Source of the DNA: a virus
Lineage: Duplodnaviria > Caudoviricetes
Reading direction: 5' to 3' (one strand)
Virus record (IMG/VR): IMGVR_UViG_3300032285_003957
Span: 32,001 to 96,000 of that record
DNA length: 64,000 bases
Positions 1-62,903 of this stretch are shown piece after piece (the stretch's first letter is position 1; every line of letters begins with the position of its first letter). The notes below the pieces were generated by a model. That model did not search any database. It saw nothing but the letters and a program-made list of their open reading frames with translations, and had not been told where the DNA came from. Made by a program: the position numbers and the translations under genes.

Positions 1-594
1 ATGATTATATCAATAACTGAATCACAATTCAATAGAATTTTTGAACATAAAACTGTCACATGCGATAATTGTGGATGGGAATGGAAATTATCTGATGGTG
101 GTAATGAACCATATAAATGTCATAAATGTGGACATACAAGTGAAGAACAAGATATGGACGAAAGAAGTCGTAGCTTTGCTTTTACCAGAAAAAAAAGAAA
201 GTTTAGTCAACCTGAAAGAATGGCTAACCCTTTGAGATACAAAGAGGTAGATAGAATACCAAAAGAAGAAATAGATGAAACAAGTCGTTCACTTGCGTTA
301 ACAAGAAAGATTAAAATATTTGATAAGACGGCGGTTGAATATGCGCACCCAAGATTCAGTCATCACGTTAAAAGACTAAAAGGTGTTGTTAAAACTAATT
401 TAGACGAGAACGATGTGCCAATATCACCTGACCATATAAAATGGGTGGAGAAGTTTAACGAGGGCGGAAAGGTTATTAGTTGTCCTAATTGTAGAAAAAA
501 ATTTATACAAACAACACATAAGAAAAAGAAATCATTACCGATATGTCCCACATGTGGGACACACGTTCAACAAGATAAAAAGGAGGGCGAATAA
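1..594 (+). CDS. hypothetical protein with two CxxC zinc ribbons and an ITESQ-type N-terminal leader (may be 5' partial)
   Basis: CDNC..CHKC and CPNC..CPTC motifs; N-terminus MIISITESQF resembles other candidate virion proteins. Confidence 0.7.
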   Translation: MIISITESQFNRIFEHKTVTCDNCGWEWKLSDGGNEPYKCHKCGHTSEEQDMDERSRSFAFTRKKRKFSQPERMANPLRYKEVDRIPKEEIDETSRSLALTRKIKIFDKTAVEYAHPRFSHHVKRLKGVVKTNLDENDVPISPDHIKWVEKFNEGGKVISCPNCRKKFIQTTHKKKKSLPICPTCGTHVQQDKKEGE

Positions 595-9082: not shown

Positions 9083-9331
9083 ATGGCTTCTAACGCATAC
9101 AAACAATCTTTAGAAAAGGGTATAGGCACAACGTCCGACCAACCAAAACACAAGAGATTAATTAAAATGTTAACTTTTAGAGTGGTTCCCGCTTATTATA
9201 AGGAAATCGAGAAGGTTGCAAACGAAAAGGGTATCACAACCTCTAAATTAATCAGAACATACATTAAGGAAGGTATGAAAAGAGACGGTGAATTATCGTC
9301 AAAAGAAGAAAAGGACTTCGGTTTATCTTAA
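9083..9331 (+). CDS. ribbon-helix-helix-like DNA-binding protein
   Basis: MLTFRV..YKEIEKVA..GITTSKLIRTYI. Confidence 0.55.
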   Translation: MASNAYKQSLEKGIGTTSDQPKHKRLIKMLTFRVVPAYYKEIEKVANEKGITTSKLIRTYIKEGMKRDGELSSKEEKDFGLS

Positions 9332-23765: not shown

Positions 23766-24533
23766 ATGAAAAATATTAAATTAGTAGTTAAAGAAAACCT
23801 CATTAAAAGATTTCAATTGCAAGAATCTGTTAATGCAATATTATTAGAAGAAAACGACAATAGAAAATTTAACATGACTATTCATCATTTGGGTAAACTT
23901 ATTGATGAGGGTTATGATGAGGGACAATTACATCAACATTTGGATGAACAATTTGATTGGTTAAGAAATTTGTTTGGTGGAGGCGGTTCTAATTCAAAAG
24001 ATATTGCTAATCATAATTCTGTTTTACAAACTGGTGAAACTTCGGCGTTTAATCAATTAAAACAATGGGGTATCAGAAAATTTTTAGGCGCGTTAGGTAT
24101 AGATTCTGAGGGACCTATGGCATATGCTATTTCAACTGCATTTACCGATATGAGTTTAATGGACATTATTTCTGTGTTTAGAGATAGACAAGGTTGTATT
24201 AGTCATTCGGATAATGTAGCAAGAGGTGTGATTGATGGTGCTGTAGCGGCAATGAGAGCTGAAGCGGGACCAAACTCAATGATTGGTAATTTTTTACAAA
24301 ATGCAATATCACAAACTCTTTATGATAAGGGTATGTTTAGAAAAATTGGTTCAGCAGTTTGTAACATGGTCTACGGAAAAGCATCAAAAAGTCTTTTACC
24401 TAAAGCGGCACAGAAAGCAATTGATGAACCAAAACCTACAGTAGCGGCGCCAACTAAAACAGTAAAAGCACCTACTGATGACGATTATCAATTTAAATCA
24501 GATTTTAGCAAAGATACGTCACCGTTATCTTAA
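23766..24533 (+). CDS. candidate virion protein
   Basis: start moved to ATG 23766; same operon as the preceding genes. Confidence 0.6.
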   Translation: MKNIKLVVKENLIKRFQLQESVNAILLEENDNRKFNMTIHHLGKLIDEGYDEGQLHQHLDEQFDWLRNLFGGGGSNSKDIANHNSVLQTGETSAFNQLKQWGIRKFLGALGIDSEGPMAYAISTAFTDMSLMDIISVFRDRQGCISHSDNVARGVIDGAVAAMRAEAGPNSMIGNFLQNAISQTLYDKGMFRKIGSAVCNMVYGKASKSLLPKAAQKAIDEPKPTVAAPTKTVKAPTDDDYQFKSDFSKDTSPLS

Positions 24534-24549
24534 TTATATGATATTTATT

Positions 24550-24660
24550 AGTAGAGTTTGGCGGTTTGGTCGCCGTTGAATGATAACTCTATTAAACGAA
24601 AAGGAGGTATTCTAAATCTCGACAAAGGGTCTTCGGACCTTTTGTTCGTTTATAGAGTTA
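24550..24660 (+). ncRNA. putative late small structured RNA containing an extended Shine-Dalgarno-like segment
   Basis: TATTTAT at 24542; several inverted repeats; cUUCGg hairpin with a G-U pair on the + strand; AAAGGAGGTATTC with no start codon following. Confidence 0.5.
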
Positions 24661-24722
24661 CCACAAACAAAAAACCCCTCGTAGAAACGAAGGGTGATGT
24701 TTTAGCGGTGGCTAAAACAAAA

Positions 24723-25119
24723 TGGTGGAGATGACGAGACTCGAACTCGTGTCTTTCCTGCTCAACAATAAATGACTACACGTTTATTACAACATTGTTT
24801 CTCAATGTTCCGAAATATCAGGTTTGATATATGTGAGAACCCTACCTGCAAACAACTTGGTCTTAGAATTATTTTAAACGAGCTCTAACCTGTCACCCGT
24901 ATATTGGACTTCTGTTCCTAGGTTAATGTCCTAATCGACCCGTGCATAGGAGGCTAACTTAGTTAGGCTGCTACTTTAGAAGTTGCAAGAATACCTGCAA
25001 TTTCCATGTTGTTGTAAACGTTGCCGTTTGAATTTTTCCACCGTAGATTTAAGTCATAGATGAAGTCTGACTACGTGCCATCTATCCCTGATACCTGAAA
25101 TCAATTCCAAAGCATCCCC
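24723..25119 (-). ncRNA. ssrA: tmRNA; tag GNVYNNMEIAGILATSKVAA* at 25025-24963
   Basis: 5' GGGGATG pairs with 3' CATCTCC-ACCA with G3-U; GTTCGAGTC T-loop; internal tag ending AA-stop; 397 nt. Confidence 0.95.
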
Positions 25120-26999: not shown

Positions 27000-27807
27000 A
27001 AAACACTGAGAATACATGTCTTAACGAAACTCTTTAAAAGGATTATTTGATTCCCTTCGTTTCCACTAACTTTTGATTAGTAAGTTTCAGTCACGGCCAA
27101 TTAGATTAACCAATCCTTTCGCAATATCCTACTCTTTTAATACTCATTACTCATCAAATCTGCCGACCTGATTCAACCTTGCGGGTTTAGAGAACTTTCT
27201 CAAAAATCATATTGGGCTTGAGACCCTTTATGGCTGCGAACCCCTCGCAACTAAGTAGTGACCTATCGGACACTGCGGACGAACACTTTTTCTTGTTATA
27301 ATTTTAGTTGTTAAACCGCTATTAACAAAATTTAGTTTCCGAATTTGGGAAAGTAGTGGTTCGTCACCTAGCCAAGCCACCTTTTGAGCGACTCGATACT
27401 AAACTACTCTCTGTAACATCCCTGCTACCATATTTTTGGACTCCTTCAAAACTAAACCCTTGGTAGAGTTTAATAAAGGATGATAACAGCACCACCTGTT
27501 TTTCACCATACCTTTCGGTTTTAAGATTCCCATTATATTGAATCACGCAATGATATAGTCGGATAACTATACTTCTTACAATAACTCTATGGATTATTCT
27601 TATTGATGTTCCCATCTCAACCGAACAACTCGGATTGCTCGGTCATCAAACCACTTTCGCTACAGTGTTACCCTCACTACTTAAGGTTCAATGATATTCC
27701 ACTTGCCTACTCGAGCTCCATTACTGAAGCCGCAACTTACCCCAACCAAGGGTTTGTCACTTTATCCCACTTTCGTGGTTTATTTTAATCGACCATAGGC
27801 GGCCAAT
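27000..27807 (-). ncRNA. approximately 800-nt structured ncRNA, probably GOLLD-like
   Basis: no credible ORF, GC-enriched, many hairpins with GNRA loops, own promoter and terminator, next to a tRNA array; 3' hairpin GACA-UGUAUUCUCAG-UGUU resembles my recollection of the GOLLD 3' end. Confidence 0.6.
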
Positions 27808-34352: not shown

Positions 34353-34420
34353 TTGCGGGGCCAGGAGTCGAACCTGGAACACTCGGCTTATGAGGCCGGT
34401 GGGAAACCATTCTCCCCGCA
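34353..34420 (-). tRNA. tRNA-Met(CAT) with reduced D-arm (68 nt)
   Basis: good acceptor, anticodon and T arms; D-arm only TGG-TTTC-CCA. Confidence 0.7.
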
Positions 34421-49916: not shown

Positions 49917-49964
49917 ATACCTTAAATATACGAAAAATAAGGCAGATTACAAAATATATTAATA

Positions 49965-50066
49965 AAAAAACCCCAACGAGTTGTCGGGGTTTAAGGTCTT
50001 TCAGTGAGTTCAACGTCACTTACTTTTGAAAAAAACGAAAAGGTAATCGACAAAGAGAACCTCCAA
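49965..50066 (-). ncRNA. putative late small RNA with its own terminator
   Basis: TATTTATA at 50070-50077; CCCCGAC/GTTGGGG stem plus U-tract; two blocks complementary to the 24.5-kb RNA. Confidence 0.5.
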
Positions 50067-50102
50067 GGATATAAATATATAAATTTTAGAAAAAATTAAA
50101 TA

Positions 50103-58154: not shown

Positions 58155-58181
58155 AAAAGAGGGTTTTAACCCTCTTTTTTT
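58155..58181 (+). terminator. intrinsic terminator before terminase
   Basis: aaaagagggtt-tt-aaccctcttttt. Confidence 0.8.
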
Positions 58182-58193
58182 GTATTTATATAT

Positions 58194-59975: not shown

Positions 59976-60029
59976 TATACATTTTATCAATTATTAATGT
60001 TATATTCTTAAAGAAAACTATTTATATAC

Positions 60030-61870: not shown

Positions 61871-62617
61871 ATGAATAAATTTGGCATTGTTAAATCAAAA
61901 TTGTTAACTAAGTTAACTGAATCTTACGCAAACGAAAATAAGGCGGAGATTAAAGATATTTTAACAACTATAAAGGAAAATAAAGATTTTAAAGAAATGT
62001 ATTTGTTCTATGAAGAAATCGAAAACAAGTATATTGAAGATAAGGATACCGCAAGATTATACGTTGAGGGATTAAATACGTATTTTGGTCAACCAATAGG
62101 TAATTGGGGTAAACTAAACATGTTTTGTGAATCTTTACATAATAAATTAGGTGATGTTGAAATTGTAACAAACGATTTATATGAAGCATTAGATGTATTA
62201 TCTGAACCTGACAAATTATCCAATATTGAAAAGAAGGTAACCGCAAAAAAGAAATTGGTGGAACATTTATCAACTAAAAAGGAAATTAAAGAATCAAAAG
62301 AAACAACATTAGTTCCAAACGAAAATTTATTAAACGCTGTTTTGGCAAACAATTTTAACGTATTATATTCAAATACACTATCTGAATCGGAAAAAGATGA
62401 ATTGAAAAATATCTTATCAATTTCACACGATGAATTAATAACTAAATCAAACGAATTAGCAGAATCGGTTATTAACCAAGTATCTACACTTTTAAGTGAA
62501 TCAAATGATACGGATTTATCCAACAAATTAAAGGCGGTAAAGGATGAGGTGACTCAAATGTCCCCGTCGCGATACAATTACTTTAGATTAAACGAATTAA
62601 AAAATGGTCTTAATTAA
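61871..62617 (+). CDS. hypothetical protein (head module)
   Basis: 248-aa helical ORF after portal. Confidence 0.7.
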   Translation: MNKFGIVKSKLLTKLTESYANENKAEIKDILTTIKENKDFKEMYLFYEEIENKYIEDKDTARLYVEGLNTYFGQPIGNWGKLNMFCESLHNKLGDVEIVTNDLYEALDVLSEPDKLSNIEKKVTAKKKLVEHLSTKKEIKESKETTLVPNENLLNAVLANNFNVLYSNTLSESEKDELKNILSISHDELITKSNELAESVINQVSTLLSESNDTDLSNKLKAVKDEVTQMSPSRYNYFRLNELKNGLN

Positions 62618-62801
62618 GACCATTTCTTTTTTGTTGAATATACACCGCTTTTAGCTTTTGCGTTCTTTTCTTAACTGAAGGTTTTACAAATACTTGTCTC
62701 ATCCTTAATTCTTGAACTTGCTTAACTTTTTGAACTTTATTTTTATAAGTTCTTAACGCTGTTTCAATACTTCTTTCTTTAGATAAATCAACGATAATCA
62801 T
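62610..62801 (-). CDS. rpsU: ribosomal protein bS21
   Basis: SIETALRTYKNKV..ELRMRQVFVKPSVKKR matches the bS21 pattern. Confidence 0.85.
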   Translation of the reverse strand: MIIVDLSKERSIETALRTYKNKVQKVKQVQELRMRQVFVKPSVKKRTQKLKAVYIQQKRNGLN

Positions 62802-62903
62802 ATTATATAATTATATAACAAAAATATAAAAAATTTTTGGAATTCTAAAATATTTTATTTATTTTTTAAATAACACCATAAAATATAATAATATGAAAAA
62901 TTA

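Follow-up and report, generated by a model that had tools for sequence, protein, structure and literature searches.

The window (the whole 64,000-nucleotide stretch of DNA that was analysed, part of a 234-kb IMG/VR virus record of a giant lake phage) contains a phage small RNA gene, here named s1, the centre of which resembles the translation initiation region of the Bacteroidota gene for ribosomal protein bS21 (rpsU) except that it lacks a start codon. A promoter-like box, the RNA of approximately 103 nt and a terminator together make it a unit of its own. On the comparisons of sequence described below, and at a confidence that falls slightly short of even, s1 may be a trans-acting, start-less decoy of the rpsU leader that occupies the freed anti-Shine-Dalgarno (anti-SD) tail of 16S rRNA. 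The gene sits in a 190-nt gap between the stop of a plus-strand ORF at 24533 and the 3′ end of a minus-strand tmRNA gene at 24723, and its parts are as follows (window coordinates).

24541-24548, plus strand: promoter-like box ATATTTAT, 4 nt 5′ of the conserved AGAG 5′ end of s1 (24553).
24553-24655, plus strand: s1, an ORF-less small RNA gene of about 103 nt with a promoter-like box and a terminator at its ends (covariance model score 122.8 bits).
24557-24580, plus strand: 5′ hairpin with covarying pairs and an invariant loop UUGGUC (24566-24571).
24595-24605, plus strand: AAACGAAAAGG, block 1 of complementarity to a second small RNA, s2 (11-nt perfect complement of 50043-50033, minus strand).
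24599-24612, plus strand: extended Shine-Dalgarno (SD) mimic AAAAGGAGGUAUUC (AAAGGAGGTATTC at 24600-24612), complementary to the 16S tail.
24604-24620, plus strand: small hairpin GAGGU/AUCUC that half-masks the SD, predicted by RNAalifold, with invariant arms and a variable loop.
24619-24621, plus strand: UCG where host rpsU leaders carry AUG, 11 nt past GGAGG, from the alignment of the s1 module with rpsU leaders.
24619-24629, plus strand: UCGACAAAGGG, block 2 of complementarity to s2 (pairs with 50057-50047, minus strand).
24622-24651, plus strand: intrinsic terminator with a 10-bp stem (24622-24645), UUCG loop and U-rich tail, supported by compensatory changes.

The preliminary description had recorded an ORF-less RNA after TATTTAT, an SD-like segment at 24600-24612 with no ATG, GTG or TTG within initiation distance, and a UUCG hairpin, all of which the sequence bears out. 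It had also proposed two mutually exclusive stems. Both exist in the window, but the first (24552-24558 with 24585-24591) is found in only about one third of the variants and the second, longer one (24584-24600 with 24645-24660) is conserved only in its AAACGA/UCGUUU part; because both stems are poorly conserved, bistability is not a trait of the family, and neither is the AGAGUUU/AAACUCU stem. The folding energy of the s1 region is far below that of shuffled sequences for both strands (z −5.6 and −7.5). A covariance model search found one copy of s1 in its own genome, and Rfam 15 had no match to s1 at E ≤ 1, returning only the tmRNA and a sub-threshold chance match in the neighbouring terminator. 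The 11-mer AAACGAAAAGG has a single other copy in the genome, inside a small ORF at window 9221-9231 (+), which is probably due to chance.

The ATATTTAT box occurs 50 times in the genome. A same-strand ORF begins within 60 nt downstream of 42 copies, and within 8 nt of 22 of these; the distances peak at 4-5 nt, and composition-matched control octamers score far lower. The box is found 5′ of every s1 homolog, and the large terminase gene and the portal gene each have it 4 nt ahead of their ATG. Judging from this placement, it behaves as a phage promoter that would yield leaderless or near-leaderless mRNAs, and much of the late mRNA would be of this kind, which is notable in view of the remodelling of the ribosome by the phage's bS21. 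Since the box stands at packaging genes, the label "late" that had been given to s1 is reasonable, though inferred. At homolog loci, the genes 3′ of s1 have their own TATTTAT box behind the s1 terminator, indicating that s1 is a separate transcription unit. The (A)TATTTAT box was also noted 4-6 nt before many other ATGs, at window 58179-58193, 60015-60029 and approximately 20 further sites that include terminase and portal. Outside the window, at about 186176 (+), 134865 (+), 111454 (−) and 30505 (+) of G000:C1, ORF-free stretches longer than 100 nt come after the box; obvious hairpins are seen at some of these sites, all of which may be further small RNA genes.

As a conserved element, s1 is far beyond chance. 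An exact 21-mer around its SD is present in 17 other viral contigs; this set is biased towards the SD, and s1 was therefore searched for again with a pattern derived from the 5′ hairpin alone, which located it in 56 contigs of IMG/VR and, among metagenomes, in at least 120. The matches listed were pooled into 128 s1 elements with 86 distinct sequences. Among these, GGAGG is present in 85 of the 86 distinct sequences (the remaining one has GGGGG), AUCUCG is unchanged in all 86, and a 25-nt core is invariant while the flanks and neighbours differ; thus the SD-like segment is conserved in homologs that were found independently of it. The 5′-hairpin pattern is absent from 185,579 bacterial and archaeal genomes, indicating that these contain no cellular or prophage copy of that exact pattern. 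A BLAST search of the s1 locus against deposited phage genomes gave no match, no relatives were found by way of the 255-aa protein encoded upstream of s1, and Pfam and PHROGs named almost none of the s1 neighbours. An anti-SD-like string 5′ of some s1 homologs was rejected as the 3′ end of a protein gene, with synonymous variation.

Covariation was assessed in an unbiased MAFFT alignment of 36 s1 variants, and a model-based alignment gave the same result. The covariation score is 0.206, compared with 0.175 for shuffles (0 of 500 reach 0.206) and at most 0.095 with slid partners. Seven pairs have double-sided changes and are located in two helices: the 5′ hairpin, in which three of nine pairs have changed in both partners (one pair, for instance, occurs as U-A, C-G and U-G), and the terminator, in which four pairs have compensatory changes beneath loops that vary among UUCG, GCAA and CUAAAG. 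The GAGGU/AUCUC hairpin has 99% of cells paired and zero covariation, although other helices of the alignment do covary. The G-U pairs of the conserved helices allow s1 to be assigned to the plus strand only, and the 1-nt indels between homologs indicate that no reading frame is conserved.

Comparison of s1 with 16S rRNA made use of 3′ ends from real Bacteroidota genomes. The terminal sequence is GGAACACCUCCUUUCU in Flavobacteriaceae; in Sphingobacterium, Pedobacter and several Bacteroidota MAGs it is GGAAUACCUCCUUUCU or ...CCUUUU(U/A). The tail given in the preliminary description, GAACACCUCCUUU, is therefore real for Flavobacteriaceae, but other Bacteroidota have GGAAUACCUCCUUU(C/U), with which s1 is perfectly complementary over 13-14 nt. 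Two Bacteroidota MAGs have GAAUACCUCCUUUU tails to which the SD mimic is perfectly complementary over 14 nt, and with tails of the Sphingobacterium/Pedobacter type its complement is 13 nt long; by tail type, s1 of the window pairs perfectly over 13-14 nt with AAUACC and over 9+3 nt with AACACC. The alignment to real tails that had been suggested as a check thus came out in favour of the SD mimic, with a complement of 13-15 nt. It is the longest 16S tail complement in the 234-kb genome, where the next-best site has 10 nt. An SD of as little as four bases is present at no more than 11 of the 260 phage genes. Across the s1 variants, the median contiguous Watson-Crick run with the tails is 13 (range 8-15), with computed duplex energies of −16.6 to −19.8 kcal/mol.

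The sole common polymorphism of the s1 module is the base after GGAGGU: of the distinct sequences among the matches listed, 58 have A there and 27 have G. Its position coincides exactly with the U/C difference between host tails, a parallel and not a demonstrated covariation. The G-type variants all have four A's before GG, whereas GAAAGG would suit the CCUUUCU tail of Flavobacteriaceae better; it therefore seems that the A-run is tuned to s2, not to the tail. None of the 86 distinct s1 sequences among the matches listed is a variant complementary to the alternative anti-SD of the Chryseobacterium type.

In Flavobacteriales, rpsU is essentially the sole gene with a strong SD, which pairs with the tail over 9-13 bp at −14 to −21 kcal/mol, and ribosomes without bS21 prefer the rpsU mRNA with its extended SD (McNutt et al. 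2023, PMC9976891); 30S subunits of F. johnsoniae bind the SD oligonucleotide AGAAAGGAGGU in vitro (Jha et al. 2021, PMC7797042). When rpsU leaders were extracted from 33 Bacteroidota genomes, the base after GGAGGU was found to follow the genome's own 16S tail in seven of the seven genomes with both, including one with an alternative anti-SD. The s1 module is identical to one host leader at 23 of 26 positions without a gap, in an alignment that ends at the AUG of the host and the UCG of s1, and it has 14 consecutive bases in common with the Sphingobacterium rpsU leader. Like the rpsU initiation regions of Bacteroidia, s1 has a 16S tail complement of 9-15 nt (at least nine consecutive bp with the 3′ tail), a variable A/G position and values of pairing length and energy that fall within the range reported for rpsU (PMC9976891); the shared bases, up to 23 of 26, extend over the A-rich stretch on the 5′ side and the spacer of 11 nt. 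In rpsU, however, a start codon stands 10-12 nt past GGAGG and is followed by the bS21 ORF, where s1 has UCG and then a terminator hairpin. With no start codon and no bS21 ORF, s1 is a mimic of the rpsU initiation region and not a member of that class; it differs further in its own terminator and extra conserved 5′ hairpin, and in being phage-encoded, 38 kb away from a phage bS21 gene that has no SD.

The phage bS21 gene and the RNA genes beside s1 are located as follows.

24723-25119, minus strand: phage tmRNA, convergent with s1 (Rfam RF00023, 83 bits; missed by ARAGORN).
27003-27411, minus strand: GOLLD RNA with an Rfam score of 303 bits, flanked by the tmRNA and an array of 25-26 tRNAs.
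62610-62801, minus strand: phage ribosomal protein bS21, 63 aa, with Tyr54 kept (Pfam PF01165, 44 bits).

No other ribosomal protein is carried by phages as often as bS21, of which Tyr54 is reported to be the residue that stacks on the anti-SD. The gene had been placed correctly in the preliminary description, and the co-occurrence of s1 with phage bS21, which it had named as something to look for, was found: bS21 is encoded by the present record and by nine of the ten other searchable s1-bearing records, the exception being a 25%-complete fragment. All of the carriers are related phages, and the link between s1 and bS21 may be phylogenetic only. Unlike host rpsU, the phage gene has neither an SD nor a ATATTTAT box on its 5′ side (window 62802-62870, minus strand), and without an SD its leader was unusable as an internal proxy for the host 16S tail. 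The architecture of the s1 phages fits that of the bS21-encoding phages that Chen et al. (2022, PMC9723584) described from freshwater Bacteroidetes, in a paper with no mention of tmRNA or any non-coding RNA. Of 16 related loci, 11 have a tmRNA that faces s1 across less than 100 nt and 15 have one within 2.5 kb, and the order s1, tmRNA, GOLLD, tRNAs recurs in at least nine related loci, which places s1 at the edge of an RNA island. Other features noted in this neighbourhood are two terminator-like hairpins after the CCA end of the tmRNA (24700-24720 and 24674-24695) and a weak extra tRNA at window 34353-34420 (−) with an Rfam score of 35.7 bits that is not in the ARAGORN list. The related phage fragment L027 has a group I intron (Rfam 65.8 bits) at 284-498 (+), approximately 650 nt from its s1 homolog, and no tmRNA within the fetched locus.

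The scan for promoter boxes also exposed a second small RNA gene with the same type of box as s1.

49964-50078, minus strand: s2, an ORF-less small RNA gene (RNA 49964-50068), with its promoter box at 50078-50071 and its terminator ending at approximately 49964.

The s2 sequence is 73-88% identical in three other genomes, and a pattern search found it in at least 119 IMG/VR contigs; most of these loci were found with a pattern that includes the s1-complementary blocks, and the conservation of the blocks is therefore partly by construction. The GGAGGU of s2 in the window is not conserved among its homologs. In all genome pairs examined, and in 17 of 17 contig pairs, s1 and s2 are complementary in two blocks, perfect and co-linear, of 11 nt and of 9-11 nt that flank the GAGGU/AUCUC hairpin and would leave it as the third arm of a junction. 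The length of the s1 A-run before GG (3 or 4) equals that of the s2 U-run in 14 of the 17 contigs holding both RNAs; the three exceptions are a single GGGGG variant in which a G-U pair preserves the pairing. At the A/G site of block 2, none of the 17 contigs has an A-C mismatch with s2. The duplex energy of the whole molecules is only 2.5-4 sd below that of shuffles, which is attributable to both RNAs being long and A/U-rich, and the block structure was relied upon for this reason. It supports a real pairing of the blocks, with shared ancestry as a caveat, and makes it plausible that s1 and s2 together form a two-RNA switch. A candidate third contact between the s1 loop GGUC and GACC of s2 comprises only 4 bp and is not claimed. 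Against host rpsU leaders, s2 mostly pairs no better than against shuffled leaders (z +0.5 to −2.7).

If s1 acts as a decoy in infected Bacteroidota, its centre, predicted to be single-stranded or weakly masked, would serve as a start-less copy of the host rpsU initiation region and would pair with the anti-SD tail where this lies outside the pocket formed by bS21, bS18 and bS6, that is, on ribosomes without bS21. It is proposed that the resulting complex of s1 with the 30S subunit could not initiate because the P-site position would be taken by UCG, with a stable hairpin starting one base further on. The RNA would then compete with the rpsU mRNA, which is essentially the sole message of Flavobacteriales that needs anti-SD pairing; the feedback re-synthesis of host bS21 would be blocked, and phage bS21, the gene for which has no SD, would take over. 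By pairing with both flanks of the SD hairpin, s2 would probably tune s1 or switch it off. Autoregulation of rpsU has been proposed as a counter-defence against phage bS21 by McNutt et al. (PMC9976891), who also predicted explicitly that unknown phage products aid the exchange of bS21. The decoy reading has its difficulties: anti-SD pairing gives no reason for AUCUCG to be invariant, which speaks against the reading; the SD core is half-masked in the predicted fold of the free RNA, in which GAGGU pairs with AUCUC at a predicted opening cost of about 5.6 kcal/mol, and this is a weak point; and abundant phage bS21 might already silence rpsU by itself, which would make a decoy less necessary. The interpretation offered in the preliminary description, an anti-SD-binding decoy or 30S sensor acting alongside phage bS21, is thus partly supported.

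Small non-coding RNAs that display the recognition element of a natural substrate in an unproductive form are exemplified by GlmY, by 6S RNA, which mimics an open promoter for RNA polymerase, and by CsrB and RsmZ, which are GGA-site decoys for CsrA. The proposed action of s1 is of the same kind, but its target would be the 16S anti-SD tail of a subpopulation of ribosomes, it is encoded by a phage, and it has no sequence or structural similarity to these RNAs, nor any Rfam match. For the relation between s1 and s2, the nearest precedent is AgvB of enterohaemorrhagic E. coli, an anti-sRNA of phage or prophage type that acts on GcvB: there, two small RNAs share extended complementarity and one is able to neutralise the other, an arrangement that would fit s1 and s2. 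In contrast to AgvB and GcvB, both s1 and s2 are phage-encoded, 25 kb apart and under one promoter type, and no host sRNA was seen. The leader of rpsF, which is bound by S6:S18, is a ribosomal-protein leader that mimics rRNA for autoregulation, and s1 would likewise imitate a ribosomal recognition site to control the supply of a ribosomal protein; however, leaders of the rpsF type bind protein and act in cis on their own operon, whereas s1 is a free-standing RNA for which pairing with rRNA is predicted.

The conservation of the s1:s2 complementarity raises the alternative that the sense-antisense pair is primary, as a sponge or a two-RNA switch, and that s1 is SD-like by descent from rpsU or imitation of it. 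Either s2 would be the effector, acting as an antisense RNA on rpsU while s1 titrates it, or the three-way junction formed by s1 and s2 would be the active species. The co-linear blocks around the SD hairpin, the A- and U-runs that match in 14 of 17 contigs with a G-U pair rescuing the exceptional variant, the absence of an A-C mismatch at the A/G site, the presence of s2 in at least 119 contigs and its promoter box of the same type are all as expected from this alternative. We nevertheless hold it to be unlikely, since the part of s1 that s2 leaves uncovered (AGGU...AUC) is the most invariant and so is unexplained by pairing with s2, the pairing of s2 with rpsU leaders is mostly equal to that with shuffled leaders, and part of the conservation of s2 was built into the search pattern. 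The same invariant segment could instead reflect binding of a protein: the GAGGU/AUCUC hairpin might be a miniature SD:anti-SD helix recognized by host or phage bS21 or another platform protein, not by the tail. Arms that never change around a variable loop, with no covariation among helices that otherwise covary, would fit such a site, as would the fact that AUCUC is the anti-SD ACCUC with one C-to-U change. This second alternative, however, leaves unexplained both the complementarity to the tail, which continues for 4-5 nt past the stem on each side, and the flanking A/G variation that parallels host tails, and it appears improbable. Taken together, the two alternatives nevertheless keep an appreciable share of the probability, given the weak points of the decoy reading.

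Were s1 only a remnant without function of an rpsU leader once captured, or just a spacer or two-way terminator separating the tmRNA from the upstream ORF, it would be expected to lie between convergent genes with a terminator at its end, as it does; the phage did also acquire a bS21 gene at some time. Such a remnant would not account for the promoter box belonging to s1, for the 25-nt core that stays invariant in 86 distinct sequences among the matches listed amid changing flanks and neighbours, for the occurrence of s1 apart from tmRNA or for the 38 kb that separate it from bS21; the pattern of conservation largely refutes this very improbable explanation. A slimmer chance still is given to s1 as a portable cassette of promoter and leader, or as a tiny gene with a non-AUG start at the AUC 8 nt past GGAGG. 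That AUC is invariant, and cassettes of promoter and stem-loop are present in phages of the T4 type; but the codons after AUC enter the covarying terminator stem, vary freely and do not keep a frame, the downstream genes have their own TATTTAT box after the s1 terminator, and on the plus strand of the window there is nothing 3′ of s1 except the convergent tmRNA.

The decoy reading of s1 may be extended to a module of two RNAs and one protein for takeover of the ribosome, comprising s1, phage bS21 and s2 as timer or antidote, an extension that we regard as rather doubtful. In such a module, s1 would pair with the entire 16S 3′ tail and either keep it out of the pocket of bS21, bS18 and bS6 or trap subunits free of bS21, and the only SD-dependent circuit of the host, the autoregulation of rpsU, would be cut while phage bS21 is being installed. 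The finding bears on how phage-encoded bS21 redirects host ribosomes, a question that s1 makes concretely testable. If the decoy reading is true, s1 would provide the first demonstrated case of a natural small RNA that works by occupying the anti-SD of 16S rRNA, and an example of a virus that disables a ribosomal-protein feedback loop by mimicry.
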